Source of the DNA: an uncultured Bdellovibrionales bacterium
Lineage (GTDB): Bacteria; Patescibacteriota; Minisyncoccia; Moranbacterales; UBA1568
Assembly (NCBI GenBank): GCA_964357915.1
Contig: CAYHND010000002.1
Span: 1 to 34,293 of the forward strand
Length of the DNA stretch: 34,293 nucleotides
Direction of reading: 5' to 3'
A program made the position numbers and the translations under genes. This document shows positions 4,399-17,358 of this stretch, one piece after another; within the stretch, counting starts at the first letter, position 1, and the number at the start of each line of letters is the position of its first letter. Below the pieces are notes generated by a model. It had not been told where the DNA came from, did not search any database, and saw nothing but the letters and a program-made list of their open reading frames with translations.

Positions 4399-5004
4399 TT
4401 ATTTTTTAAGCCCGGCAATAAAACGCTTAAGTTCGGGCACTTTGTTGATGACTTCTTCATAGGGATTTTCCAGAAATTCCATGAAAAAACGGTCAAGCAT
4501 ATTTAGTCTATAGTGGAGTTCTTCAGCATTCATCAAGAAAAAACGGATTTCCTTGCCCACTTCTGCTTCGAGATGGGCAATAGCGTGCTTGAGCTTAGTG
4601 CGGTTCTCATTGTTGACCACCAAGACCATATCTACTTTACTCTTCGGGTTATTGATGAAAAGTCCGCTAATCAAAATCAGTTTCACTTCACCAACTACCT
4701 TGAGCTTACGAAAAATCTGTGACTGAGCATGCACATTGAGTTTGGAAACCAGACTATGAAGCTCGGTGTGAAAAGGAAAGTTTTCATTCAAAACATACAC
4801 TTTTTTCCCTTTGCGTATTTTTTCAATCAGAAACTTCATCTTTACCAATTTGGTAATCTCACGAGCAATATCTTTTCTTGGAACTAAGGTCTTCTGAGAG
4901 ACGATGGTAGCGCTAAACTCAACGCCTGGATTCAAGAGAAAGAAACGGAGTAAACGTGCGCGTGCTTTCGATCCGAACAGTGTATCAAAGAGTGCTAGTG
5001 ACAT
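4399..5004 (-). CDS. Winged-helix (ArsR/MarR-like) DNA-binding protein with unassigned C-terminal domain
   Basis: The N-terminus LFGSKARARLLRFFLLNPGVEFSATIVSQKTLVPRKDIAREITKLVKMKFL has a wHTH pattern. The C-terminal half (LILISGLFINNPKSKVDMVLVV...) loosely resembles a degenerate minimal nucleotidyltransferase, which is low-confidence inference. First gene of the 5004->1419 operon. Confidence 0.65.
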   Translation of the reverse strand: MSLALFDTLFGSKARARLLRFFLLNPGVEFSATIVSQKTLVPRKDIAREITKLVKMKFLIEKIRKGKKVYVLNENFPFHTELHSLVSKLNVHAQSQIFRKLKVVGEVKLILISGLFINNPKSKVDMVLVVNNENRTKLKHAIAHLEAEVGKEIRFFLMNAEELHYRLNMLDRFFMEFLENPYEEVINKVPELKRFIAGLKK

Positions 5005-5049
5005 AGTATAAATACAGAATTAATCCGCCTTTTAGGCCTCCTAAGGGCA

Positions 5050-5078
5050 AGTATACTGGCAAAAGAGATGAGCGTCAA
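5050..5078 (-). promoter_or_regulatory. Sigma70-type promoter of the wHTH-rmuC-membrane-wecA-like-DUF192 operon
   Basis: The minus strand reads TTGACG (5078-5073), a 17-nt spacer, then TATACT (5055-5050), about 45 nt upstream of ATG 5004. Confidence 0.65.
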
Positions 5079-5251
5079 AAAAGGCTCTTGCCAAAACTCC
5101 ATAGAAATGGTGGGGCTTTGGGTTTTTAGGCGAAATGACGCTGCCTAAGCATCACAGAGACGGAGCTCGTTGAAAGTAGCATGTCTTATTTTTGGCTCAA
5201 AGTAAGTACAAAGTCTTTCTTACCTACCTGTTCCAAACTGTGGTGCTGGGG

Positions 5252-5257
5252 TATAAT
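5252..5257 (+). promoter_or_regulatory. Candidate -10 box (TATAAT) 11 nt upstream of ATG 5269
   Basis: ggggTATAATtatagaagaatATG. No good -35 is present (best 3/6) and there is no SD, which implies a very short or absent leader. Confidence 0.4.
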
Positions 5258-5268
5258 TATAGAAGAAT

Positions 5269-7725
5269 ATGAAAGAAAAAAAAGGAACCCCTCCAAAAAG
5301 TACCCCTGGCGTGCTGGTGCGTACTTTTCATGAAATCTTGATTGCTGACAAACGTTCTTATGAGCCGTTTGTTAAGGTGTTTCGTGCAGAAGGAGAAAAT
5401 GTAAGTAAGCTTGATCTTGGTACCCTCGTAGGAGTGTTTGAGGTGGATGAAAAAGATGAAGATGCTGCGTACATTGTCAATTTTCTGGCTTCGGTAGCCA
5501 AGAAAGAGTATTTCAATAACCCGCGCCGTGGTCCTATCGAAAGTTTTGAGGCAGCGCTCCACAAGGTCAACGTTGCTCTCGCTGAATTGGTCAAACATGG
5601 CAACGTCTCTTGGCTTGGTAAACTCCACGGTGTGTTGGCTGTTCTCGAAAAGAATAATCTCCACTTCTCGGTCACTGGTGAGGCAGCGCTACTCCTTTTT
5701 CGTCAAGAACAATTCTCTGAAATAAGTGATGGCCTTGCTTCAAACGAGGCAGACGTTCATCCCCTTAAGACATTTGTTGAGGTCTCTAGTGGCCGACTCA
5801 TAGAAGATGATAATCTTATTCTCTCAACACCAGAGCTTCTCGCTCTTTTCCCTTTAGACTATCTCACTAAACAGGCGAGCCGTATGAACGCTCAGGCCTT
5901 TCGTCAGTTTCTGCGTACCGCTCTGGTCAATGAAATAGACATGGCAGCTGTTCTCGCTATTGAACTCAGTACAGCCAAGCAAGAGATTCCATCCACCCCT
6001 CCCAAAGTCAAAAGTGAATCACCGTCAAAAAGTAAGACTGTTGCCAATGCTTTTAGTCAGGCTACCTATGCATCTACCAAAAAGCCTTCCACCGTGCCCG
6101 CTCCAGAGGTGGTGCCTATAGATAGCGATTCTGTCAAAGACAAAGAAGAGTTTATTGATGAAAAAACTGGCCATATCTATGTCCAAGGAGATGAGATTGG
6201 CGATGGGGGCTCACTCAAGCACTCAGTGGTACTCGAAGGTATTCATGAGGTTGGCTACCAGATTGGTGAGTTTTTTTCACGAACTGTCCGTAGACAGGGT
6301 AAAAAGACTGCTCGTCTCGGAGCCTTCCTTCTTTGGGAAGCTCGCGAACAAACTACCCGCCTCTCCCGTAAAGCTGTCCAAAAGATTGGTGCCCTGAAGA
6401 CCAAGCTTGCCGAACAACAAAAAGCCAAAGCGGCTCAAAAAGTCCGTCAACTAGAAAAGGAAGCTCGTCAGGAGAGCAAGCGTCAAGCAGAAGCTGTAAC
6501 GGAGCCCGAGCTACTCCCAGAAGAGACTGTGCCTATCCTTCCAGTAACAGAGGAAGTGCTAGATGAGCCTATCTTCGATGAATCCCCTATTGGAGTAGTC
6601 GAAGAAGTTGTTCCTCATCATATTGAACGCTTCCGTTCACTCTACCAACCAAAAGCCAGCCCCCTTATTACAGAACCAGTCTCTCTAATAAAAAGTCCCA
6701 AACAGAATTCGCTCGTTCAACGGAAGTCATGGCTTAGCTTTTCGAAAAGATGGCTCCGTACGGTACTCTCTACTCTCAATACCCTCTCCCAGGCCATTCT
6801 CAAACAAAAAAAGATTCTCCTTCTTTCTCTTGGTGGGCTTCTCATAGTCAGTGGCTTCGGTTTCTGGTTGCTACAACTCAAAACAAATCCCGTCCACGTT
6901 GACCTACAAACCTCATCACCCGAGACCTCTACTCCAACCCCTGCTAATCTCGAAACCAACACCCTACAGCCCGAATCCACCTTTGCTCTCGACAAAGAAC
7001 TCGTTGCCCTGAGCTTCCTAGAAAATCGAGCATACGGAGCGACTACCAAAAGTATCGTCGCTGTAGACAGCAAGGAAGAGTTCGCTATTCCTGATCTCAA
7101 AGGCGAGATTCGTTTCCTCGCTCCTATGGAAGATCTGCGTTTGCTTTTTATCCTTACCAGTCAAAACGAACTCTTTGCCTGGAGCCCCCTCGCTAAAACA
7201 TTCACCAAAAACGAGTTGGCTCTACCAGCAAACGCTCGCGTAGTAGGTATGGGAACCTACCTCACCTATCTCTATGTCCTTGACCGTGGCAACAACCAAC
7301 TCTATCGTTACCCACGATCAGCGGCTGGTTTTACAGAATCTGCCAGCTGGATGAGGGAATCTCTTGAACTTACTGATGTAACCTATCTTGCTATCAACGA
7401 AACAGTGGCCCTAGCTCCTTCTCGCGAGGATCTTCTCTCTTTTTCACAAGGTAAAAAGACTGGTGCCTTTGACCCTGATGACTCAGCCAGGTCTCTAACA
7501 CTTCGAGCGCTGACAACCGATAGTGACTTTCCTTTTATCTATGCCTTAGATGAAGAAAGCACCCTTTCTATTTGGAACCTTGAACGTAAGCTCCTCCATA
7601 CATATAGCTTGAAAGATGCGCCTAAGGACGCCTCCTATCTTGCTTCAGATCCAGAGAAGAAGGTTCTCATTCTCGGCAATAAAGAGGGCGACATCACTCG
7701 CTATAGCAACATCACAAGTGAATAA
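5269..7725 (+). CDS. Large single-pass membrane protein: cytoplasmic PPM/SpoIIE-like (degenerate) domain, charged linker, TM helix, beta-propeller-like ectodomain
   Basis: 818-aa ORF. By eye, residues about 40-230 show PP2C-fold periodicity (LVGVFEVDEKDEDAAYIVNFL, LHGVLAVLEKNNLHFSVTGEAALLLFR, DDNLILSTPELL). A Pro/Lys/Glu-rich linker with a coiled coil follows, then a TM helix (ILLLSLGGLLIVSGFGFWLL). The C-terminal about 270 aa carry repeated beta-strand motifs (LYVLDRGNNQLYRY, IYALDEESTLSIWN). The function call is inference. Confidence 0.75.
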   Translation: MKEKKGTPPKSTPGVLVRTFHEILIADKRSYEPFVKVFRAEGENVSKLDLGTLVGVFEVDEKDEDAAYIVNFLASVAKKEYFNNPRRGPIESFEAALHKVNVALAELVKHGNVSWLGKLHGVLAVLEKNNLHFSVTGEAALLLFRQEQFSEISDGLASNEADVHPLKTFVEVSSGRLIEDDNLILSTPELLALFPLDYLTKQASRMNAQAFRQFLRTALVNEIDMAAVLAIELSTAKQEIPSTPPKVKSESPSKSKTVANAFSQATYASTKKPSTVPAPEVVPIDSDSVKDKEEFIDEKTGHIYVQGDEIGDGGSLKHSVVLEGIHEVGYQIGEFFSRTVRRQGKKTARLGAFLLWEAREQTTRLSRKAVQKIGALKTKLAEQQKAKAAQKVRQLEKEARQESKRQAEAVTEPELLPEETVPILPVTEEVLDEPIFDESPIGVVEEVVPHHIERFRSLYQPKASPLITEPVSLIKSPKQNSLVQRKSWLSFSKRWLRTVLSTLNTLSQAILKQKKILLLSLGGLLIVSGFGFWLLQLKTNPVHVDLQTSSPETSTPTPANLETNTLQPESTFALDKELVALSFLENRAYGATTKSIVAVDSKEEFAIPDLKGEIRFLAPMEDLRLLFILTSQNELFAWSPLAKTFTKNELALPANARVVGMGTYLTYLYVLDRGNNQLYRYPRSAAGFTESASWMRESLELTDVTYLAINETVALAPSREDLLSFSQGKKTGAFDPDDSARSLTLRALTTDSDFPFIYALDEESTLSIWNLERKLLHTYSLKDAPKDASYLASDPEKKVLILGNKEGDITRYSNITSE

Positions 7726-7728
7726 CCC

Positions 7729-10224
7729 CTATCCCTTGGTACTCAGTCTTTCAAGAATCTCTTGATTAACAAGCTTGGTGTCTCGTCCGTAACGCAGGCG
7801 AGAGAGTTCTTTGAGGGCTACTGCCACCTCACGACTCCCTTGAGTTGGAGGAAATGTTTTCATATTGAACGGCTTGGTGAGCTCATTGTTCATCAGGAGA
7901 CGAGCAAAACAATTGAAGTTATCAACATTGACGATATCAGCTGCTGTAAAGACCGGGGTGAATTGTTTTTCAAGAAACTCAGCGTCTTCTGGCCCAACTC
8001 GAAAAGTAACGAGCGAGCCTACGTTACCAAATACCGCCTTAGAAATATCTTCTTTGAGCTGGCCAATAAACTGATGAGCAAGCATCAAGGTGAGCTTGTA
8101 CTTACGAGCCTCTGAAAGAATCTGGGCAATAGAGCTCGTAGTGACGTTTTGGAATTCATCGAGATACAGACTAAACTCCTGGCGCTCATCCTCAGGAATA
8201 TCCGCTCGTGAAAGCGCTGCCATCAGGAGCTTACCCACTATCACCATACCGAGAAGACGGGCATTGATTTCTCCAATTTTCCCTTTAGAAAGATTGACCA
8301 AGAGAATTTTCTTGGTATCCATGATTTCACGAAAATTAAGAGTGCTTTTCTGTTGACCAATAATTGGTCTAACCAGATCATTGGATGTAAAAGGTGTTAG
8401 TTTGGAAGTGATGTACGGTACCATATTGGCAAGCGCCCCCTCACCTCCAGCTTTTTCAGCTTCATTCTGCCAAAAATCTCGGACTATCGGGTTCTGACAA
8501 TGACGGAGCTTCATGCGGCGGAAATCCTCATCAGCCAACACTTTGGATATTTCCATCAGAGTTGAGCCGCTTTCTGGATGATCCATGATGAGGAGCATGG
8601 CATTACGCATATACTGCTCAAACATCGGCCCGCCCGTCGCTTTCAGGTCATAGAGCTGGTCAAAAATACCAATCATCTCGTTGATAACAAAGGTCTTTTG
8701 TTCAGGATAGGCTGGATCGTATTCCAGCATGTTCATACCCAGAGTGCGCTCGACATCACTCGGGTCAAAAATAATGACATCTTGGGCGCGTTCTTTGGGA
8801 ATGCAGGCCAGAATATCCTCAATGGCATCGCCATGAGGATCCAGAAAACAAAACCCTCGTCCCGCTACGGCATCGCGTTTGGCAATTTCTTGAAGGAAGT
8901 TGGATTTACCCACACCCGTCTGCCCAACTACGTAGAGGTGACGGAGACGGTCTTTGTCACCGATACGAATATCTGTTTTGATACCCCGGTATTCGTTGTA
9001 ACCTAAGAGCGTTCCTTCGGTCGGTACATTAATTGGTGGCGGTGCCGCTCCCGCCTTGAGCCACTTAATCTTTGGTGTTTCTGTAGTGGAAATAGGAAAA
9101 TGGAAAATACCGGCAATCTCCTCTGTATTGAGAAGAAAGGCATGTTCATCATCAAAATTACGAAAGATATAGTGGTACGCTGCATCACGACTTTTGAGAC
9201 GCTTACGTACTCGAAAACGATTGACATCTGGGTTTTCAAATTGACCAAAAGCACTCTCTATCTGGCCCAAAATCTGTTCAGCACGTGTCTGGGTAGCCGC
9301 TGAGGCCAAAAGACGCACATTGACCCGAAAAGCCCCCTTGCTCGTCTTTTCCTCAATGGACTTGATGAGATCTTGATCCTGGGGAGTAAGCTGGACGGGT
9401 GGCTTATCTGCTTGAGGGGTGTTTGAGTTAGTGGGACTTAGACCACCTAAGACTCCCTTACCCACTTCTTTACCGAAAGACTGAAGTTTACGATTAGTGC
9501 CAAGATCACGCAGTTGCTTCCCCTCCTGAAGACTCCGGGCTATGGTGCGCCCCTCATGCCGCCAAGCATCACCAGCTGGTGCCAGCACCACCTGGATAGC
9601 TGCTCCCTCATCCAGGGTAGCCAGTTTACTTAAGGCATTCGAGAGTTCATTTAATGGGTCGACACCGAGTGAATTATAGGTGCGCAGTGGAAGAGCATGG
9701 CTATGAGTCAATTGAAGCTCTGTGATGGCTACGTGCCCTCCTGGAGTAAAGATAGTGTAGTCAGGGATGCGCTCAAGGTGAGCCTGAGGGAAGAAACTGT
9801 GAATTTGCTTCTCGATACTTTCACGAAATACCCTCGGTACTGCTACCAAGAAAAAGATCTCTTCACTGGTGGCTGGATTGGCAATTTCAAGGACAACTGT
9901 AGGTGCGTGGTAGAGAAAACGTTGGAAAAAGTTACCCGGGTGTTTGAGTCCTGTCAATGACACCAGGAGCTGTTCCATAGCGGCAATCTCCTCTTTCCAG
10001 ATATCTCCACGGTCGGTTCCTCCATCAGTACGTTTTTGTGGGCGAGCGACTTTGACCACCTCAAGCTCAAGCTCCAGAGACTTATTAATCTGCTTGCGGA
10101 AACCGTAAAAAGTCTTCACCAAAAGCAACCCCCCTGAGAAAAGAGTGAGAAAGCCTAATGCCCAAGCAAAGGGAATAAGAATAGTGTTAATGGTGATATC
10201 TATCATACCCTCCTGTATGTACAA
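7729..10224 (-). CDS. VirD4/TraD/TraG-like type IV coupling-protein-family ATPase (FtsK-HerA superfamily) with N-terminal TM helix and unassigned N-domain
   Basis: Walker A GQTGVGKS (nt 8902-8925), FLDPHGD, Walker B-like LYLDEFQNV, and ARKYKLTLMLAHQ. N-terminal TM helix ILIPFAWALGFLTLFSGGLLLV. The track start at 10224 is TTG, directly after the upstream stop. The alternative ATG at 10206 has AGGAGG only 2 nt upstream. Confidence 0.85.
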   Translation of the reverse strand: MYIQEGMIDITINTILIPFAWALGFLTLFSGGLLLVKTFYGFRKQINKSLELELEVVKVARPQKRTDGGTDRGDIWKEEIAAMEQLLVSLTGLKHPGNFFQRFLYHAPTVVLEIANPATSEEIFFLVAVPRVFRESIEKQIHSFFPQAHLERIPDYTIFTPGGHVAITELQLTHSHALPLRTYNSLGVDPLNELSNALSKLATLDEGAAIQVVLAPAGDAWRHEGRTIARSLQEGKQLRDLGTNRKLQSFGKEVGKGVLGGLSPTNSNTPQADKPPVQLTPQDQDLIKSIEEKTSKGAFRVNVRLLASAATQTRAEQILGQIESAFGQFENPDVNRFRVRKRLKSRDAAYHYIFRNFDDEHAFLLNTEEIAGIFHFPISTTETPKIKWLKAGAAPPPINVPTEGTLLGYNEYRGIKTDIRIGDKDRLRHLYVVGQTGVGKSNFLQEIAKRDAVAGRGFCFLDPHGDAIEDILACIPKERAQDVIIFDPSDVERTLGMNMLEYDPAYPEQKTFVINEMIGIFDQLYDLKATGGPMFEQYMRNAMLLIMDHPESGSTLMEISKVLADEDFRRMKLRHCQNPIVRDFWQNEAEKAGGEGALANMVPYITSKLTPFTSNDLVRPIIGQQKSTLNFREIMDTKKILLVNLSKGKIGEINARLLGMVIVGKLLMAALSRADIPEDERQEFSLYLDEFQNVTTSSIAQILSEARKYKLTLMLAHQFIGQLKEDISKAVFGNVGSLVTFRVGPEDAEFLEKQFTPVFTAADIVNVDNFNCFARLLMNNELTKPFNMKTFPPTQGSREVAVALKELSRLRYGRDTKLVNQEILERLSTKG

Positions 10225-10614
10225 TTATGCGATTTGCCCCTCAAGTTTCTCATGCAAGCGTTCAATGAGGGTGTCACGAAACATATCGAGAGCATAGAGG
10301 TCTTCGAGTTGGCGAGCCACACTGACCGCGTGAATCACTCCCTTAGTATCAGCCAAAGAGAGCAGTCTCGTGATACGCTCTTCCTCATCAACCAAAGAGA
10401 GGCTCGTGGCGTCATCTTTGACCTGATCATCCGTAGTGGTCTGCAAACTGGCTGTATGAGTATCAATTTTCTTCAGCAACTCCCCCATGCGCTCACTCTT
10501 TTGTTCTGGCGCTCGCTCTACAACCTGCTCCTTATTCATGAGACTCGTCGCTTCAGGCATCCCAGTAATACCTTCGATAGGTGATCCTCCGGTTATTTCA
10601 ATGCGCTCATCCAT
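10225..10614 (-). CDS. Small acidic cytoplasmic protein (129 aa), unknown function
   Basis: The ORF fills the gap between neighbours exactly. Asp/Glu-rich, no TM helix. C-terminal helical motif KGVIHAVSVARQLEDLYALDMFRDTLIERL. No family recognised. Confidence 0.7.
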   Translation of the reverse strand: MDERIEITGGSPIEGITGMPEATSLMNKEQVVERAPEQKSERMGELLKKIDTHTASLQTTTDDQVKDDATSLSLVDEEERITRLLSLADTKGVIHAVSVARQLEDLYALDMFRDTLIERLHEKLEGQIA

Positions 10615-10639
10615 ACTTTTTCGTGTTATGTACTTATAC

Positions 10640-10957
10640 TTAGACAGATGCTACTTCACTATATTTATCCATATCAGATTTGAAATCCGTTACTACTCCA
10701 CGAATAAAAACTGGGTAGTTAGGGATTTTTTCGGCCAGAAATGCCTCTACGGTATCAACATCGGCATTACTCTCTATGAGTTTCTGATAGTCTTTGGCTC
10801 CCTGAGCCCCCAACTTATCAATAGTCGCCAAGAAGAGTCTCTTGAGGAACACCTCGCCTATCTTTGCTAGCAAGTCATCTTGTTTTTCTGGCGATACATC
10901 TTCTAGACCAAAAATCTCTATGATTTCTTGGCGATACTGTTCGAGTACTTGGTTCAT
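10640..10957 (-). CDS. Small helical protein, DUF5663-like (tentative)
   Basis: 105 aa. The pattern IFGLEDVSPEKQDDLLAKIGEVFLKRLFL...DYQKLIESN...VEAFLAEKIPNY resembles my recollection of DUF5663 proteins common in Parcubacteria. The ATG overlaps the upstream TGA (ATGA at 10954-10957). Confidence 0.7.
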   Translation of the reverse strand: MNQVLEQYRQEIIEIFGLEDVSPEKQDDLLAKIGEVFLKRLFLATIDKLGAQGAKDYQKLIESNADVDTVEAFLAEKIPNYPVFIRGVVTDFKSDMDKYSEVASV

Positions 10958-13716
10958 ACGCGTGCGAGTTTATCGAGATTAAATTTATTTTCTGGAGATT
11001 CAAAACCGAGAGTCACCATGCGTCGTGTATAGGCTGCAATTGTTTCATTTCTTCCTGGCTCGGCTACTTTACCATAAGCATTTACCGCTAGCTCCTTAAA
11101 TCTATTTACTCGGGTAATTTGATCTGTGCCAAGTAGAGCTTGATTCTCTACAAGGGTCTCCCCTGGCGTCTTGGCAGCCAAAACAACATCCGTCATCTTC
11201 ACAGTGGGCGCATTGAGAATGCTATCACGAAAGCGCAGGTCATTAGTAGCAAAAATAGTCCTCCGCGTATCTTCTAGTTCTTTGTAGTAAACCGCTCTCT
11301 CTATCCTACCTTCTCCTATCAGTTTAGCAGTTCCATCGACTGGCTCATCCGATACCTCACTCTCAACAGAAGAACTCTCACCGGTATCAGCCACCGCTTG
11401 TTCTGGAACATTTACTGATGCTACTTCGTTATTTGCTATTCCTGCATCTGAAGCTACTTCAGGAGTAGGAGCCTCTATAGAAGATGCCGTGATGTCTTTA
11501 CCATTCAGCACCTCTTGTAGTTCTGATTGACTGACTAGACCGTCAAGTTTCAAGGTATCGCCCGCATAAATAGTATTGATATCACCGCTCCGGAACCCGA
11601 TGGCTTCTTGGTCTGCTGGTGAGAGAGCTTCCAACTTAGTGGCAATGAGTTTCTGTAATGAGGTGATGGCTTTGGTCTTTTGGGCTTCATCCATATCAGC
11701 CGGAAGGGATTTATCCAATACTCCCCACAACCCCTTCTGACTATCTGCTCCAGTTAGTTCGTATTCTGCCGGCATCGCTGACGCTCCCCCTCCCACTTCG
11801 TACGACATGGTGGGCGTGTTTACCGGCAAAGGGATGTCTTTGGTTACTCCAGTGACAATCTCGGCTCCTGGCGTAACAACGGTCGTAGCGTCTCGCAGAT
11901 GAGAGAGATACTCTGTCAAAGCCAGCCCTCCAAAAGCCCCTCCGACACGCAAAGACCATTTACGGAAAAAAGTTTTCGTTCGTTTTTTGTCTATCTGTTT
12001 ATCTATACTCTGACTATCAAGATCCAAAAACTCGTTAAGTCTCTTGGCAAACTCCTCAGAAGAAGTATGTTCTTCAGTTTCAATAAAATTCTCAATCTCA
12101 GCGTTAACTTTCTTCTCTTGACGTCCACTCAAAAATTTCTCTGCAGCCGTATCAAGAGCTACTGCCCCACCCAGTCCAGCACAAAATCTCCTAAGCGCTA
12201 TACCGCCGATAGCAATACCGGCACCAGGGGTAGCGGCGAGTGCTACAGAGCTTCCAAAGAGGATCACTGCCAGTGCGGCTTTTTTTCCTATCGAAAGGTT
12301 ATTGTATTGTTCTCCTATTTTATCAAGCCAAGTCCCCAGTTTTCCTGAGAGAGTTTTCTTCTCTTCTTCAGCGTACAAATTGCCAAGAGCTGCTCCTTCA
12401 GCCATCAAAAAATACTTCCCTAGCTCACGCATTGCTCCAGCCCTCTCTGTTTCACCTAAAGGGGCAAGACTAGAAATTTCTTCATCTTTCTTTTGAGCTA
12501 AGAGACTCCTGTAATGTTGACGGAGCATCACAAGATCCTGATCTTCAGGCTTTTTAAGCCACGTGAAACTTCTGACTAAACTCTTCCATTTAGCGGTCAC
12601 TTCAACGTCTTTGGTGACATAAGCCAGGCGTGCTGCTGTAATTCTTTCTTCAAGAGTACCTTCTTTTTCTGATTGTTGAGATCCTTCAATAGGTACTCCT
12701 TCAGCCACTACCCCCTCTACAAGATCCTTTACAACTGGAGCCTCCACTCCTAAGGCGAGAGTTTGCGGGATATCAAGAGCAAGCTCACTAGCAAGCTCAC
12801 TCGGTTCTATCACTACGGTTTTTTCATCTCTATTTTCTGGAGTAATGTTCTCTTGAATCAGTCTCTCTATTTCCTTTTCTGATCCACCAAGATTAAGAAA
12901 TTTATTTACTGCTTCTTGGCGCGCACGTTCACTATCGTTGAGGCGCTGACCAAAGCTAACTGCTTTGGTCTTCAAATCCACGCTCTGCTCGCGAAGTCTT
13001 CCGAGGACTGTATCAACCGACTCGATCTTCTTACGTCTACCTGAAGTAGCTTGTGGCTCACGATGAGCTATCTGATCATCGATACTTTTAATATCTTCCC
13101 CAATAGCAGCAATATTTTTCTTCAGCGCATCAATACGATTCTCTTCTTGGAGAATATTGACGCCTGCGTCCTTTTTTTCTTTTTCTTTTTTCTGCTCACT
13201 TCTTAGCTGTCGAATAGCATCAATCGCGTCTTTCCCGGTATTGTCTGTATTATCGACAACCGGTTCAGGATTTATCACTGCCCCTTTAGCCTTGACCCTA
13301 CTCTCTCCTACTGACACTTTTTCTTCGGCTAATGGCTTTGTGGCAGCTATTTGCTCTTGCGTGGCAGTAATTTGTTTTTTAATATTGTTCAACATCCACA
13401 CTGGCTGGTTGATATCACGCTCCTGTTCCTCTAGTCGATGTAGAGTAATCTCTAAAGAAGCAGTATCAGGGCGTTCTTGATGTAAATCAAGGTTAGCCTG
13501 TACTTGCTCTGGATCAGTCACTCTAACAGAGACAGGTTTACTTTCAGCAATGCCGACTTGGACAGTCTGTTCTTCTCCAGATGCTTCTGGTGGTAACACG
13601 AGTTCTGCTACTGCATCACCTTTACCATCAGTAAAAAGAAGTGCCTCCTGCGAAGCAACCTTTTCTTCTAGTCTAGGCTCCTTATATCTTCCTGTCACTC
13701 TGTCAAAAAATCCCAT
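10954..13716 (-). CDS. 920-aa coiled-coil protein with central Gly/Ala-rich TM hairpin, unknown function
   Basis: Long uninterrupted ORF. The N-terminal about 480 aa are charged and coiled-coil-like. Hydrophobic segments are AALAVILFGSSVALAATPGAGIAIGGIAL / FCAGLGGAVAL and WSLRVGGAFGGLALTEYL. An acidic Ser/Glu spacer precedes a C-terminal globular-looking region. SD-like AAGGA sits upstream of the ATG. Confidence 0.8.
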   Translation of the reverse strand: MGFFDRVTGRYKEPRLEEKVASQEALLFTDGKGDAVAELVLPPEASGEEQTVQVGIAESKPVSVRVTDPEQVQANLDLHQERPDTASLEITLHRLEEQERDINQPVWMLNNIKKQITATQEQIAATKPLAEEKVSVGESRVKAKGAVINPEPVVDNTDNTGKDAIDAIRQLRSEQKKEKEKKDAGVNILQEENRIDALKKNIAAIGEDIKSIDDQIAHREPQATSGRRKKIESVDTVLGRLREQSVDLKTKAVSFGQRLNDSERARQEAVNKFLNLGGSEKEIERLIQENITPENRDEKTVVIEPSELASELALDIPQTLALGVEAPVVKDLVEGVVAEGVPIEGSQQSEKEGTLEERITAARLAYVTKDVEVTAKWKSLVRSFTWLKKPEDQDLVMLRQHYRSLLAQKKDEEISSLAPLGETERAGAMRELGKYFLMAEGAALGNLYAEEEKKTLSGKLGTWLDKIGEQYNNLSIGKKAALAVILFGSSVALAATPGAGIAIGGIALRRFCAGLGGAVALDTAAEKFLSGRQEKKVNAEIENFIETEEHTSSEEFAKRLNEFLDLDSQSIDKQIDKKRTKTFFRKWSLRVGGAFGGLALTEYLSHLRDATTVVTPGAEIVTGVTKDIPLPVNTPTMSYEVGGGASAMPAEYELTGADSQKGLWGVLDKSLPADMDEAQKTKAITSLQKLIATKLEALSPADQEAIGFRSGDINTIYAGDTLKLDGLVSQSELQEVLNGKDITASSIEAPTPEVASDAGIANNEVASVNVPEQAVADTGESSSVESEVSDEPVDGTAKLIGEGRIERAVYYKELEDTRRTIFATNDLRFRDSILNAPTVKMTDVVLAAKTPGETLVENQALLGTDQITRVNRFKELAVNAYGKVAEPGRNETIAAYTRRMVTLGFESPENKFNLDKLARV

Positions 13717-13759
13717 ATTTCCTTTTCCTTTGTATTGATTTCATATATAATAATACCAT

Positions 13760-13781
13760 AGAAAGAGAAAAAACTCTTTCT
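13760..13781. repeat. 8-bp stem hairpin/palindrome in divergent promoter region
   Basis: agaaagag-aaaaaa-ctctttct (13760-13767 / 13774-13781) in the AT-rich 123-bp gap between divergent genes 13716 (-) and 13840 (+). Possible operator; no clear -35/-10 assignable. Confidence 0.4.
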
Positions 13782-13839
13782 CTAAAAGGAAAAGAAATAC
13801 CAAAATTAACCAGAGCCTATCTTCAGGCACCTCTCACTT

Positions 13840-15429
13840 ATGACCAAACAACACGCTCTCGTGTGGTTCGCTCTGACGCTCATTATTCTCGGTGCACTTT
13901 TTGCACGGAGTTACCATATTAGCTCTATTCCAAGCGGTCTCTATCCCGATGAAGCCGTCAATGCTGTTGATGCTCTAAGCGCTATCAATAGTGGCAACTA
14001 CCAACTTTTTTACCCCAATAATTACGGACGTGAGGGTCTTTTTATTAACCTTCAAGCCCTTTCTCTTAAAACTTTTGGCTATACCGTAGGGGCTCTCAAG
14101 CTCTGGTCTATCATTTTTGGCACCCTCACTGTTTTGGGTACCTACTTTCTTGGTCGCGAGCTCTTTCATCGTCGTGGAGCAGCCTTATTGGGAGCCTTCT
14201 TCATAGCCACCAGCTACTGGGCTATCAACTTCTCGCGTATTGGCTTTCGAGCTATCATGACCTCCTTTCTCATCAGCTTTGCCTTCTTTTTCTTCTTCAA
14301 AGGCCTGCGGACGAGGCGCTATCTCGACTTCGCTCTTGCTGGACTCTGTGTGGGCTTAGGTCTACACACCTACATTGCTTTTCGTCTTACCCCCCTTATT
14401 CTTATAGCTCTCCTTCCTTTCCTCATGCTTTCTTACGAAAACTTCCTCAAGCGTTACTGGAAGCAGGGTCTTGTGTTTGCTCTGACTGCTTTTATAGCAG
14501 CATCTCCCATGCTCTATCACTTCTTTATTGCTCATCCAGAAGATTTTGCCTCGCGTTCTACGGCTATCTCGGTCTTTGCACCCGAAGTTAATCATGGCGA
14601 TCTGCCTGGCACTCTATTTAAAACCTTCGGCCTCAGTCTTCTCAAATACAATTTCTGGGGTGACCAGAACTGGCGTCACAATTATCCCCCTTACCCAATA
14701 CTCGACCCCATTACTGGCTTCTTCTTTCTAGGAGCACTGTTGTTCCTTATTTCACAGACAGTAGCCCTTCTCGGTAGACGCTTGCGTCATCGTGATCGCG
14801 ATACTCGTCTGGTACGCAATATTTTCCTCCTAAGCGCCTTCTTTATCATGTTGATGCCTGAATTTTTCACTGCAGAAGGCCTTCCTCACGCACTCCGTGC
14901 TATCGGGACACAAGTGCCCGTCTTTTTGATGGCTGGTCTTGGTGCTTTTTGGATTTACCGGAGGATTATGCGTGCCCCCTCACAATCAAGAGTCATCCTG
15001 CTCTCACTTTTTTTCATCACCCTTGGTCTCAGCGCTACTTTTAACCTCACGAAATACTTTATCTTCTTTGCTAACAGTCCTGACCAGCGAGGTGCTTTTA
15101 ATGAAGACTATACCAACATGGCCACCTATCTCCTCAGTCTTCCACCTGAAACGAAGAAATACGTCTACACAAATGCCGGTGGCACTGATATAGACAACGG
15201 TCTCCCGGTGACGGCGGAATCTCTCTACTTCTTGACCTACGGTAAAATAGAGAATCTTATCTTTCTGAAGCCAGATACCTCCATTTCCACACCAGCCGTT
15301 GTGATTCTTATGCGTTACGACGACGCTATCGCCAAACGTCTCCTCAATCGCCATCCTGGAAGTGCAGTAGAAACTATTTACACTAATCCACACTCTCCTG
15401 TTGGTTTTCCTGCTATTATTCTTCCATAA
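13840..15429 (+). CDS. GT-C fold glycosyltransferase, family 39/83-like (ArnT/PMT-like, polyprenyl-phosphate-sugar dependent)
   Basis: 529 aa with more than 10 TM helices. The first periplasmic loop motif YPDEAVNAVDA is a DEx-type motif typical of ArnT/PMT-like enzymes. No obvious SD. Confidence 0.85.
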   Translation: MTKQHALVWFALTLIILGALFARSYHISSIPSGLYPDEAVNAVDALSAINSGNYQLFYPNNYGREGLFINLQALSLKTFGYTVGALKLWSIIFGTLTVLGTYFLGRELFHRRGAALLGAFFIATSYWAINFSRIGFRAIMTSFLISFAFFFFFKGLRTRRYLDFALAGLCVGLGLHTYIAFRLTPLILIALLPFLMLSYENFLKRYWKQGLVFALTAFIAASPMLYHFFIAHPEDFASRSTAISVFAPEVNHGDLPGTLFKTFGLSLLKYNFWGDQNWRHNYPPYPILDPITGFFFLGALLFLISQTVALLGRRLRHRDRDTRLVRNIFLLSAFFIMLMPEFFTAEGLPHALRAIGTQVPVFLMAGLGAFWIYRRIMRAPSQSRVILLSLFFITLGLSATFNLTKYFIFFANSPDQRGAFNEDYTNMATYLLSLPPETKKYVYTNAGGTDIDNGLPVTAESLYFLTYGKIENLIFLKPDTSISTPAVVILMRYDDAIAKRLLNRHPGSAVETIYTNPHSPVGFPAIILP

Positions 15430-15459
15430 ATTACCTAACTCATCATCAGCCTACCTTCT

Positions 15460-17358
15460 ATGGAGTTTTTACAAAAGCACAGCCTCAAAATAGCTCTCGC
15501 TATTCTTGTTTGTTTCTTTACCCTCAACCTCATTGTTTCTGACCAGGAAGCCACCACCATGGATGAACGAGCGCATATCCCTTCAGCCTACAGCTACGTG
15601 CGCTATGGAGATATGCGCCTCAATCCGGAACACCCTCCGCTCCTGAAAGATCTGGCCGGTCTTCCTCTCTTAGCTCTCCAGCCCGAATTTCCACTCCAGT
15701 CAGAGGAATGGCAACATGGTATCAATGCTCAGTGGGTCATGGGTCAGAAGTTTATCAGCTGTCTGGTTCCCGAAGAAGCCTGCAACGACGCAGATCAGAT
15801 TACCTTCTGGGCTCGAGTTCCTATTGTCTTAGTCGCTGTTCTTCTTGGTATTTTTATCTTTGTGTGGACGAGGGCGCTTGCCGGATCGCTGGCTGCTCTC
15901 TTTGCCCTCACTCTCTACGCCTTTGATCCCAATATCATTGCTCATAGTCACTTTGTGACCACTGATATTGGTATTGCAGCCTTTCTCTTCTTTTCTTTTT
16001 ACTACTTTGTGCGTTTCCTCAAAGAACCCACTCCGCGTAATGTCATTATCTCAGGTATCTGGCTAGCCCTGGCCAACCTGGCCAAATTTTCAGCGGTACT
16101 CCTCTTCCCTATCTTTGGACTCTTTGTCCTGTTGTATGCCTTGAGTATTGCGAAACCCTCTGAAGCACAACTCTCAACTTTTCTTTTCAAGCTCAAACAA
16201 ATTTGGCTCTACGGGTATAAGTTTGCCTTAAGCGTTGCACTCTGTTTTGTCATTATCTGGGTTTACTACTACCCACATACCATGAACATGCCCGGTATCA
16301 AGCTCGTTGAAGTAGCAGAAATGATGTTTCCAGATAAGCAGGCTGGGCCATTCGCCAAGAGCTTTATCAAAGCTACCTATGACAATTCTTTTCTCAAGCC
16401 TTTTTCTGCTTACTTCCTTGGTGTCTTCATGGTCTTTGGGCGTGTCGCTGGTGGGAATACCTACTATTTCTTGGGGGCTGTCTCTAACCACGCCTCCCCT
16501 TGGTATTTTCCCATTGTCTTTATCCTCAAGAGCACCCTCCCCTTCCTCTTTCTCCTTGTCGCAACAACACTCTACAGCCTCTACCGTATAGCTAAGAGCT
16601 TCAAGGATGAGCAGGTCACTTCTCTTGGCAAACTTGGTACTTTCTTAGCCCAATCTCTGCAGCGTAAGACAGCCCAGTATGTAGGAATCTTCTTTGTTCT
16701 TTTCTACAGCTTCGTCAGTATCACGGGTAACCTCAATATTGGCTTTCGTCACCTTTTTCCTATCCTCCCCTTCCTCTTCATGTTTATTGCCAAAGTGGTC
16801 TTTGACAGTATCAAACGTCAGTCCAGTCAATTTACCCAAAAGATTAGTTACAGTATTCTCGGTATCTTCACTTTCATTATTATAGCTACTCCGTTCCTCT
16901 CCTACCCTCACTTTGTCTCATACTTCAACACTGCTTTTGGGGGACATCAGAATGGCTACCGCTATGTCACTGACTCCAACTATGACTGGGGTCAGGACTT
17001 AAAACGCCTCAAGACTTTTGTGGATACCCATAACCGCTGTGTCGCTTCGCAGGCCAGCCTCAAAGATGACTGCACGCTAGCTATCGGTCTACCGCCCATC
17101 GACAAGCTCCGTATTGATTACTTCGGAGGGGCAACCCCTGAGTACTACTTCAAAGACGTAATGATTCCTTGGCATGCCTATACCTCACCTGAGGCTGGCT
17201 GGTATGCGATCTCCATTGGTTTTATGCAAGAAAGTGTCAGTGTTGATCCAGGCTACAAAGCCGACAGCTACGACTGGCTCATGCAAAACTACACTCCCGT
17301 TACCAGAGCTGGTGATTCTATCTTCATCTACTACGTACCAGAGGTACCCGCTAAGTAA
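15460..17358 (+). CDS. Second GT-C fold glycosyltransferase (PMT_2/GT39-like, phospholipid-carrier dependent)
   Basis: 632 aa, multi-TM. N-terminal loop DERAHIPSAYSYV...NPEHPPLLKDLAG is characteristic of this family. C-terminal soluble domain. Lies 30 nt after the preceding GT-C gene. Confidence 0.85.
   Translation: MEFLQKHSLKIALAILVCFFTLNLIVSDQEATTMDERAHIPSAYSYVRYGDMRLNPEHPPLLKDLAGLPLLALQPEFPLQSEEWQHGINAQWVMGQKFISCLVPEEACNDADQITFWARVPIVLVAVLLGIFIFVWTRALAGSLAALFALTLYAFDPNIIAHSHFVTTDIGIAAFLFFSFYYFVRFLKEPTPRNVIISGIWLALANLAKFSAVLLFPIFGLFVLLYALSIAKPSEAQLSTFLFKLKQIWLYGYKFALSVALCFVIIWVYYYPHTMNMPGIKLVEVAEMMFPDKQAGPFAKSFIKATYDNSFLKPFSAYFLGVFMVFGRVAGGNTYYFLGAVSNHASPWYFPIVFILKSTLPFLFLLVATTLYSLYRIAKSFKDEQVTSLGKLGTFLAQSLQRKTAQYVGIFFVLFYSFVSITGNLNIGFRHLFPILPFLFMFIAKVVFDSIKRQSSQFTQKISYSILGIFTFIIIATPFLSYPHFVSYFNTAFGGHQNGYRYVTDSNYDWGQDLKRLKTFVDTHNRCVASQASLKDDCTLAIGLPPIDKLRIDYFGGATPEYYFKDVMIPWHAYTSPEAGWYAISIGFMQESVSVDPGYKADSYDWLMQNYTPVTRAGDSIFIYYVPEVPAK

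Follow-up and report, generated by a model that had tools for sequence, protein, structure and literature searches.

A DUF8128-family ATPase combining a predicted VirB4-like domain with a VirD4-like motor, and its partner genes in Patescibacteria

Patescibacteria make up a large share of the diversity of bacteria. In a survey of 3,035 Patescibacteria genomes, VirB4 was found in 2,417, or about 80% (PMC12102498). The same survey counted 5,713 homologues of VirD4-type type IV coupling proteins (T4CPs) in 2,918 of the 3,035 genomes, 148 of them near virB4, and its authors mention possible exaptation of the T4CP homologues (PMC12102498, Quinonero-Coronel et al. 2025). The T4SS (type IV secretion system) is essential in the one Patescibacteria species tested genetically, where its function is unknown (PMC10633639, PMC11665869), and no coupling protein can be recognised in the cluster of T4SS genes of S. 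epibionticum (PMC10633639). Here we consider a 34,293-nt stretch of DNA of patescibacterial lineage (assembly GCA_964357915.1, contig CAYHND010000002.1, positions 1 to 34,293 of the forward strand; hereafter the window), on which four minus-strand genes, called D, C, B and A in the order of transcription, form a compact operon. Gene A, the last, encodes an ATPase most aptly classed as a VirB4/VirD4 hybrid of the DUF8128 family. What sort of ATPase is it, with what partners does it travel, and might it serve a T4SS encoded elsewhere?

The likeness to coupling proteins lies in the C-terminal half of gene A. TrwB is its best sequence match in the PDB (phmmer), and along the motor there follow a Walker A motif, the motif FLDPHGD, the sequence LYLDEFQNV at 8143-8169, and ARKYKLTLMLAHQ at 8071-8109. 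The P-loop residues G434, Q435, T436, G437, G439, K440 and S441 are invariant in a 24-sequence alignment (A1). Residues D689/E690, R707 and Q718 of gene A align with positions 285/286, R304 and Q315 of the TrwB chain, which become D356/E357, R375 and Q386 once the +71 offset of the deltaN70 construct is added, and they are invariant or nearly so across the family alignments. R375 we take to be the arginine finger of TrwB. Judged by alignment with TrwB, then, Walker A, Walker B, the arginine finger and the Gln sensor of a T4CP-type P-loop ATPase are all in place. The sequence-only reading of this DNA had allowed that an arginine finger might be missing; R707, near-invariant and aligned with R375, is the candidate for it. 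The ATPase would form a ring hexamer, and the position of an arginine acting in trans is supported by the alignment.

Profile searches point the same way. The Pfam families TraG-D_C and T4SS-DNA_transf are matched by gene A above their cut-offs (26.1 bits against 22, and 22.7 against 20.1). TrwB_AAD_bind scores just under its cut-off, DUF87 reaches 23.0 bits against a cut-off of 23.2 and over the Walker A region only, and FtsK_SpoIIIE finds no Pfam match in gene A. Among NCBIfam models the VirD4-like conju_CD1115 scores best, but its 31.9 bits fall far short of the cut-off of 250; the other NCBIfam matches lie at 17-28 bits against cut-offs of 366-900, so that all fall below the equivalog thresholds. 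In the full-length AlphaFold2 (AF2) model, residues 509-636 are all-helical (pLDDT, the local confidence score, about 60-89). Foldseek aligns the motor with TrwB over some 325 columns, with a TM-score on the target (TMt) of 0.45-0.49, and also matches it to Cag-beta, DotL, HerA and SIR2-HerA. The sequence-only reading had proposed a T4CP-type P-loop core in an 831-aa protein with an N-terminal transmembrane helix, and both parts of the proposal stand, the hydropathy profile showing a single helix. Because basic residues come after this helix, the protein would have its N-terminus outside and its C-terminus inside.

The same reading had found some 380 aa between helix and motor unassignable. 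This region can now be assigned: it holds the DUF8128 domain. The full-length AF2 model is mediocre (pLDDT 62.5). Its best PDB matches by Foldseek are TrwK/VirB4 chains (about 800 columns, E 1.9e-9), which rank above Cag-beta, TrwB (TMt about 0.47), DotL and HerA. Residues 70-385 were modelled separately with AF2 on a more diverse alignment, giving a pLDDT of 89.4 and a predicted TM-score (pTM) of 0.87. Against the PDB, the top 14 Foldseek matches of this model are all TrwK/VirB4 chains, at E 2e-4 to 7e-3 and with TM-scores on the query (TMq) of 0.35-0.47 for the top ones; the next match stands at E 0.16. Against BFVD, the model matches Gp156 of phage G (E 3e-16), gp150 of phage JL and a protein of phage Slash; Gp155 of phage G, which is VirB4-like, is matched too (E 2e-5), as is a further protein described as a 'component of type IV transporter system'. 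From these structure matches in PDB and BFVD, the DUF8128 domain is predicted to have a fold like that of the VirB4 N-terminal domain. Homology between the two is likely on the models, and short of proof because the TM-scores are modest. VirB4 N-terminal domains dock the ATPase on the inner-membrane T4SS complex (PMC12102498). The layout of gene A is therefore one membrane helix, a predicted VirB4-like docking domain, and a VirD4-like motor with a predicted helical insertion, and the protein is predicted to work like the T4SS ATPases and to descend from them.

How does this compare with the described systems? Like the T4CPs VirD4, TrwB, TraD and TraG, gene A has a membrane-anchored N-terminus and an FtsK-HerA-type P-loop, and genes of its kind are often encoded at a distance from channel genes; the predicted helical insertion between Walker A and Walker B may correspond to the T4CP all-alpha domain. 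It differs in an extra domain of about 320 aa, predicted to be VirB4-N-terminal-domain-like, which separates the anchor from the nucleotide-binding domain, in having one helix instead of two (none in most fused forms), and in being a chromosomal core gene and not a mobile one; the T4SS channel, relaxase or mating-pair formation genes that give a T4CP its usual context are not nearby in the window. With VirB4/TrwK it shares a two-domain order, the docking domain at the N-terminus and a RecA-like motor behind it, and these are its best Foldseek matches, but the TM-scores reach only 0.35-0.47. The VirB4 Pfam families CagE_TrbE_VirB, AAA_10 and P-loop_TraG find no match in gene A, unlike phage G gp155, and there are no VirB3-, VirB6- or VirB8-like neighbours in the window. 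A small protein encoded upstream and sometimes fused recalls the VirB3-VirB4 arrangement; B, however, differs from VirB3 in having no membrane segment. Patescibacteria also have a separate, bona fide VirB4 (PMC12102498). HerA and FtsK/SpoIIIE share the P-loop superfamily with gene A, as reflected in the weak DUF87 match and the HerA matches of Foldseek, but gene A has no FtsK_SpoIIIE, HerA-barrel or gamma domain, and the matches are limited to the P-loop core.

A parallel is found in phages. Gp156 of Bacillus phage G is 21.5% identical to gene A over residues 125-830 (E 3e-37), the profile phrog_5156 is matched at E 8e-79, and the N-domain has a TMq of 0.64-0.67 against the phage proteins. Phage G gp156 shares the full DUF8128-plus-motor architecture with gene A. 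Unlike gene A, gp156 is phage-borne and adjoins both a VirB4-like gene, gp155 (P-loop_TraG, AAA_10), and a TrbL/VirB6-like gene, gp153 (TrbL_4), and this is the sole T4SS-type context found here for members of the family. In the phage G locus (L087) the T4SS-like trio gp153, gp155 and gp156 occupies 4725-10289; the homologue gp150 of the SPO1-like phage JL lies near a StbA/ParM-like gene. A phmmer search with phage G gp155 and gp153 found nothing in the 166 Patescibacteria loci described below, and is an insensitive test. An IMG/VR scan found relatives of the motor half only.

The family is large. A first homologue search gave 1,835 matches among its candidates, and the best 120 are 66-95% identical to gene A at 95-99% coverage. 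These 120 carry a precomputed PF26449, named DUF8128 by one source, at the N-terminus together with PF10412, PF12696 or PF01935. Gene A is placed in the DUF8128 ATPase family by this homology; the PF26449 hidden Markov model itself gave no score, even on the proteins that carry the domain precomputed. An exhaustive search, counted in clusters at 50% identity, found 21,390 of them at E<=1e-3, and at the stricter E<=1e-30 there were 5,706, with full-length alignments of the family down to 33% identity. Among the matches listed are loci labelled Moranbacteria, Staskawicz-, Uhr-, Magasanik-, Buchanan-, Falkow-, Komeili-, Berkel-, Levy-, Davies-, Curtiss-, Doudna-, Peri- and Peregrinibacteria and Saccharibacteria. 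The labels of several metagenome-assembled genome records ('uncultured Bdellovibrionales', 'Gammaproteobacteria') are probably submission artefacts and were not used. With 5,706 clusters at E<=1e-30 spread over many Patescibacteria lineages, the ATPase is not lineage-specific, as it had been thought possibly to be. A genome scan with one distant protein (P0250) yielded 3 loci only.

Gene neighbourhoods were compared in 80 Moranbacteria-type loci and 86 diverse loci, which are those among the matches listed in the genome scans, so that the true totals are at least these. Most of the ATPases of the 80 Moranbacteria-type loci are 61-72% identical to that of the window. Tandem DUF8128 paralogues were recognised by the family profile in three of the 166 loci. 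In these the two paralogous ATPases are tandem or a few kb apart (L139, 1128-6163; L147, 6893-15521; L167, 7016-14468), and such pairs fit the approximately two T4CP homologues per genome of the published survey (PMC12102498).

Some members of the family depart from the form seen in the window. Proteins of 1,500-2,000 aa (P0167, P0169, P0172, P0178, P0181, P0184, P0186 and P0192) have C-terminal extensions of 800-1,200 aa without any Pfam domain and without similarity to B, C or D. P0242-P0274 seem by composition to come from outside the Patescibacteria; their motors are 43-49% identical to that of the window and their N-halves differ. Two of the members scanned among these, P0265 and P0273, start with a Response_reg receiver domain.

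Of the three other products of the operon, B is tied most closely to the ATPase. It is soluble and acidic, with no membrane segment by hydropathy, and is conserved in a C-terminal helical motif of about 45 aa (residues 80-124, nt 10243-10377). B lies directly upstream of the ATPase in 77 of the 80 Moranbacteria loci. It was found in 32 of the 86 diverse loci, directly upstream on the same strand in 28 and fused to the ATPase in 4, and in no other placement; the B profile also matches the N-termini of longer family members, in which B is fused to the ATPase. A reverse test started from B alone: all GTDB species genomes were scanned for a DNA motif encoding DPYxLDxFHD, which occurs in 68 places, 66 of them B genes by profile. 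At 57 of these 66 independently found B loci, from several lineages, an ATPase gene lies within 3 kb on the same strand, and in 54 of the 57 it begins less than 400 nt downstream of B; for most of the 9 other loci the retrieved block was too short to judge whether an ATPase is present. Because of this upstream or fused placement and the result of the reverse test, we conclude that B is a dedicated partner domain of the ATPase. The B of the window has Arg (MFRD) where about 90% of the aligned B proteins have His in DxFHD.

B has no Pfam match, no PDB match by sequence or profile, and no PADLOC or PHROG match, and direct comparison shows it to be unrelated to C. Doudnabacteria-type loci have only a small upstream gene and the ATPase, the small gene being B-like in 2 of the 3 examined, and lineages of the ABY1 type have no detectable B. 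Downstream of the ATPase in 26 of the 86 diverse loci, and in no Moranbacteria locus, is a gene for a protein of about 190 aa, which in the ABY1 type replaces B and may be an alternative partner of the ATPase. This protein, whose loci are mostly of ABY1 or Doudnabacteria type, has the motif GVFDGQNMIGPDxKQYPVPANYASKSKLVEGD and no Pfam match; its gene lies within about 1.4 kb of the ATPase in 25 of the 26 loci (examples are L084, 12639-13178; L085, 13287-13892; L086, 12708-13301). In a small number of Parcubacteria, among them the cultured Candidatus Microsyncoccus archaeolyticus, C and B are followed by an AddA-like helicase-nuclease (L180, L188, L189, L221), and in L221 an ATPase gene stands about 3 kb upstream of C and B.

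C is likewise soluble and acidic by hydropathy. It matches the Pfam family DUF5663 (PF18908) at 21.7 bits, below the cut-off of 23.7, with E 3e-4 and over 81 of the 84 profile positions, and is probably a divergent member. The sequence-only reading had called the partner proteins unassignable, which holds for B and D, neither of which has a Pfam match, and no longer for C, given this weak match. A C-like gene lies within 2.4 kb of the ATPase in 55-58 of the 80 Moranbacteria loci, and such genes lie equally near in Minisyncoccia, Paceibacterota, Berkelbacteria and Azambacteria loci. In the Minisyncoccia, Paceibacterota and Berkelbacteria, they come right after, or one gene after, a large charged protein with Gly/Ala-rich hydrophobic segments. 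Loci of Azambacteria and of other Parcubacteria again show C, B and the ATPase in that order. Neither C nor D has a PDB match by sequence or profile, or a PADLOC or PHROG match. In Moranbacteria loci without a C gene, the long D proteins contain no C or B domain.

D is the largest product. Its N-terminal 340 aa or so are hypervariable and cannot be aligned beyond the two closest relatives; the conserved C-terminal part covers residues of about 340-910 (nt 10987-12699) and includes a central Gly/Ala-rich hydrophobic hairpin. The hydropathy profile gives D no N-terminal signal sequence, and since the hairpin is single, both large domains would be cytoplasmic. A word-based search found only 4 homologues, so D was traced by tblastn and iterated profiles. 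By tblastn it was found in 20 of the 80 Moranbacteria-type loci. A profile of residues 340-920 matches 51 of the 60 large upstream open reading frames (ORFs) in Moranbacteria loci, and also a 778-aa ORF of a Minisyncoccia locus, L082 (E 5e-10); no Pfam or NCBIfam family matches D. The sequence-only reading had described a 920-aa protein with a transmembrane hairpin and two small acidic proteins, and had suggested a possible role for them at a host-contact surface. The hairpin and the acidic pair are borne out; the surface role is not, all of these proteins being mainly cytoplasmic by prediction.

The layout common to the 80 Moranbacteria-type loci is a protein of 750-1750 aa, one of about 100 aa, one of about 140 aa, and the ATPase, and the four-gene linkage is thus kept in related genomes. 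B, C and D are only 24-52% identical across these loci. Is this linkage evidence of a shared function? Conserved linkage in the Moranbacteria alone is no proof, because the flanks are syntenic too. In L082, however, the order is a B-ATPase fusion, the 778-aa D-like gene and a C-like gene, and because the linkage survives this rearrangement there is good evidence that B, C and D form a functional module with the ATPase. B and C resemble the accessory subunits of known couplers (IcmS, IcmW, LvgA, DotM and DotN with DotL in Legionella; CagZ with Cag-beta in H. pylori; TraM with TraD of F), which bind their ATPase as adaptors or regulators, in being small, acidic and helical and in being encoded next to a coupling ATPase, and Cag-beta/CagZ (8dol) and DotL (6sz9) are among the structure matches of the motor by Foldseek. 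The accessory subunits show no sequence or profile similarity to B or C; it is from gene context and the B fusion that the analogy of B and C to adaptors may be drawn.

The ORF listing confirms four consecutive, tightly packed minus-strand genes from 13716 to 7729 (Table 1). The ATGA at 10954-10957, in which the stop of D overlaps the start of C, and the 25-nt gap between C and B at 10615-10639 are present in the sequence as first described. It had also been said that the stop codon of B directly abuts gene A. This is so only for the ORF called mechanically from a TTG. Homologues of gene A begin to align at Met7 of that ORF, and the sequence cAGGAGGgt stands just before an ATG at 10206-10204, so that this ATG is the likely true start and the spacing between B and A about 18 nt. 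The TAA stop of B (10225-10227) is in frame with the ATPase ORF (from 10224), a single stop codon separating the two, which elsewhere, in other lineages, make up one polypeptide. One might think of read-through of the in-frame TAA. This is unlikely, because the frames differ in a 95%-identical relative (L001) and because a Shine-Dalgarno motif and an ATG follow the stop in the window. The split between the B and ATPase genes looks evolutionarily recent or labile. An AGGAAA motif resembling a Shine-Dalgarno sequence precedes the start of D. A promoter for the operon upstream of D is only putative, because consensus scans for promoters and terminators found sites no commoner than in shuffled sequence. 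A search for tandem repeats gave nothing meaningful.

Table 1. Coordinates in the window of the operon genes and of features within and beside them
Feature	Coordinates	Strand	Description
Gene D	10954..13716	-	920-aa acidic protein (ORF listing)
Gene C	10640..10957	-	105-aa acidic helical protein, DUF5663-like
Gene B	10225..10614	-	129-aa acidic protein; N-terminal part disordered, C-terminal helical motif conserved
Gene A, DUF8128-family ATPase	7729..10224	-	831 aa as called from TTG
N-terminal transmembrane helix of A	10117..10197	-	Residues ~10-36; single; hydropathy profile
DUF8128 domain of A	9070..10017	-	Residues 70-385; predicted VirB4-N-terminal-domain-like fold
Walker A of A, GQTGVGKS	8902..8925	-	Residues 434-441; aligns with the TrwB P-loop
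FLDPHGD of A	8827..8847	-	Motif of gene A
Predicted all-helical insertion of A between Walker A and B	8317..8700	-	Residues 509-636; position of the T4CP all-alpha domain
Walker B of A, LYLDEFQNV, then ARKY...AHQ segment	8071..8169	-	phmmer alignment to TrwB
Predicted membrane hairpin of D	12154..12285	-	Residues 478-521; two short hydrophobic helices round a TPGAG turn
Divergent intergenic region between D and PMT_2	13717..13839	.	123 nt, AT-rich; putative operon promoter

The surroundings of the operon are those of an ordinary chromosomal region. The other genes of the window are housekeeping genes: DUF192, a MraY-type GT4 glycosyltransferase, RmuC, two PMT_2, FtsQ and HolB; two GT1, MreB, MurA, TrxB, a MurD-like ligase and an amidohydrolase; GAPDH, TIM, a GalT-like protein, GT2 and RuvX. 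In domain scans, none of the other ORFs of the window showed a domain of a T4SS protein, relaxase, integrase or transposase; the window also has no tRNA gene and no Rfam match, and GC content is uniform across it, with no compositional break. The view that the flanks are envelope and housekeeping genes, and the region chromosomal with no sign of a mobile element, is borne out. Across classes the neighbours of the ATPase include CysS, DnaB, RecR, YbaB, DnaX/HolB, MraY, Ddl, FtsQ and the amidohydrolase, several of which are also in the window. Given this housekeeping synteny, together with a composition that is uniform and a protein that is strongly constrained, we argue that the ATPase is an ancient, vertically inherited core gene and not the remnant of an element or part of a defence island.

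Several neighbours deserve a brief description. An 818-aa protein (5269-7725, plus strand) is encoded convergently to the ATPase, the stop codons being 3 nt apart; nothing in Pfam, NCBIfam or PHROG matches it, and it is a conserved neighbour in 57 of the 80 Moranbacteria loci, at 34-73% identity and usually with extra DNA before the ATPase. A 201-aa protein (4399-5004, minus strand), also without a Pfam match, is present in 37 of the 80 related loci and, where present, is typically 62-96% identical, above its neighbours. The two tandem PMT_2 genes (13840-17358, plus strand), for membrane glycosyltransferases that are GT39-like and Agl23-like, diverge from the operon and hold that position in 55-57 of the 80 loci. 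Near the ATPase of another Patescibacteria locus (L086, 1-2663) is a DnaB helicase with an intein and a LAGLIDADG endonuclease.

What might the products of this operon do together? The bulk of all four is predicted from hydropathy and charge to be cytoplasmic. No polytopic membrane protein is predicted among them by hydropathy, so an external channel would be needed for export, and export by A, B, C and D alone is unlikely. The reading that we tentatively favour, as quite possible rather than probable, is that of a coupling-complex-like assembly serving a T4SS encoded elsewhere; that such a T4SS exists is the literature figure for Patescibacteria, the genes read here being those of the window. 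A hexamer of the ATPase would sit at the cytoplasmic face of the membrane, anchored there through its own helix and perhaps also through D. Adaptor or regulator subunits may be supplied by B and C, and D may be a membrane scaffold or a client. With ATP as its energy source, the complex would pick out a substrate, either protein or DNA, and feed it to the T4SS channel (VirB3/4/6/8 and pilins), which in most Patescibacteria would be encoded elsewhere on the chromosome. We count the phage G trio, the predicted VirB4-like N-domain and the TrwB-like motor in favour of cooperation with a T4SS, and likewise the linkage of the partners, the stronger constraint on the ATPase than on B, C and D, the frequency of VirB4 in Patescibacteria genomes, and the T4SS cluster of S. 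epibionticum that shows no coupling protein of its own.

Several observations weigh against that cooperation. A VirB4-like N-domain is absent from canonical T4CPs, whose N-terminal helices usually number two. The fused B-ATPase proteins nearly all lack a membrane helix, and one has B followed by about two helices. T4SS genes are absent from the window by domain scans, and in the 166 related loci no further ATPase was recognised by the family profile (E<=1e-5) within 7-10 kb, save for the tandem paralogues, a search that a VirB4 might escape. Relatives from outside the Patescibacteria, with motors 45-49% identical, have other N-halves, some with receiver domains, and no known T4SS link. In S. 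epibionticum a t4cp homologue, unconfirmed as to its DUF8128 type, is reported to be non-essential although the T4SS is essential (PMC12102498).

Some of these facts would be accommodated if the ATPase were an exapted motor, independent of any T4SS, which handles DNA or protein on the cytoplasmic face of the membrane; it could then act in chromosome or nucleoid handling, in clearance of DNA linked to division, or in extraction and remodelling of membrane proteins. This is a possibility of some weight, on balance unlikely. A vertically inherited core gene that stands among replication, division and envelope genes across classes would suit such a role, although housekeeping synteny may reflect no more than conserved gene order. 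The predicted cytoplasmic placing of all four products, the existence of soluble fused forms, the receiver domains of the relatives from outside the Patescibacteria and the variation of partner sets by lineage (the gene of about 190 aa, in 26 of 86 diverse loci and 0 Moranbacteria loci) also fit, as does the reported non-essentiality of the S. epibionticum t4cp, for which exaptation has been proposed (PMC12102498). Against this, both domains of the ATPase are nearest in structure to T4SS ATPases, and the phage G homologue lies within a VirB4/VirB6-like module. A replacement of FtsK, which might be imagined for such a motor, is probably not needed, because a paper on the Saccharibacterium TM7x mentions FtsK. 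More doubtful is a Patescibacteria-specific machine made of the DUF8128 ATPase, B, C and D, placed on the cytoplasmic face of the membrane, derived from a VirB4/VirD4 ancestor and independent of the T4SS. If that were true, the orphan T4CPs of nearly every Patescibacteria genome would be a new functional class and not coupling proteins; they might process macromolecules imported from a host, or handle the chromosome where the division apparatus is minimal.

The sequence-only reading had proposed an autonomous, possibly lineage-specific translocation module that might act at a host-contact surface. The operon is indeed conserved, A and D have membrane segments, and the hypervariable N-half of D could reflect pressure from interaction with a host. 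We nevertheless find this improbable: one helix in A and one hairpin in D make no polytopic channel, D lacks a signal peptide, and prediction places its variable region in the cytoplasm, like the bulk of the other proteins, the ATPase occurs across the Patescibacteria, and some lineages have only B and the ATPase, or have a soluble fusion instead. It is very improbable that we are dealing with an anti-phage or conflict system centred on a HerA- or mad8-like ATPase. PADLOC finds mad8 at E 3.6e-12 and weak matches to HerA models, Foldseek matches HerA and SIR2-HerA, and some homologues match nSTAND_NTPase5, but the HerA-type matches cover the shared P-loop core only, no effector domain (nuclease, SIR2, TIR or the like) is found in B, C or D, and whereas defence islands are patchy, the ATPase is nearly universal, keeps its synteny and is under strong conservation. 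That the operon is what remains of a decayed conjugative or integrative element seems barely credible and is already largely refuted. A T4CP-like motor without neighbouring mating-pair formation genes might suggest such a history; yet its catalytic motifs are intact and strongly constrained, the window, uniform in composition, lacks an integrase, a relaxase, a tRNA gene and any boundary formed by repeats, the locus recurs with its flanks in 80 species-level genomes, and the family shares its housekeeping neighbours across classes.

Our tentative preference therefore stays with an assembly that resembles a coupling complex. The word orphan, applied earlier to the ATPase, describes its position only; orphan T4CPs as such have been reported, because the T4CP homologues far from virB4 were already counted (PMC12102498). 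What appears new with respect to the searchable papers is the predicted DUF8128 fold, B as a partner that can also be fused, the recurrent C/D module and the phage G parallel; in the literature search, neither DUF8128 nor DUF5663 turned up in any paper. The T4CP-like genes scattered outside the T4SS cluster have been considered possibly exapted (PMC12102498). The present analysis gives such genes a concrete anatomy, in which a predicted VirB4-like docking domain and a VirD4-like motor come together with B, C and D. Should gene A prove to be merely a divergent coupling protein with adaptors, the result would be useful for the annotation of DUF8128, DUF5663 and the B family. The family may form a third branch of the VirB4/VirD4 ATPase radiation, and so bears on the evolution of T4SS ATPases. 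If the preferred reading is true, the ATPase would be a candidate for the missing component that energises the T4SS or selects its substrates; the analysis also gives experiments a way of approaching what the essential T4SS of Patescibacteria does.

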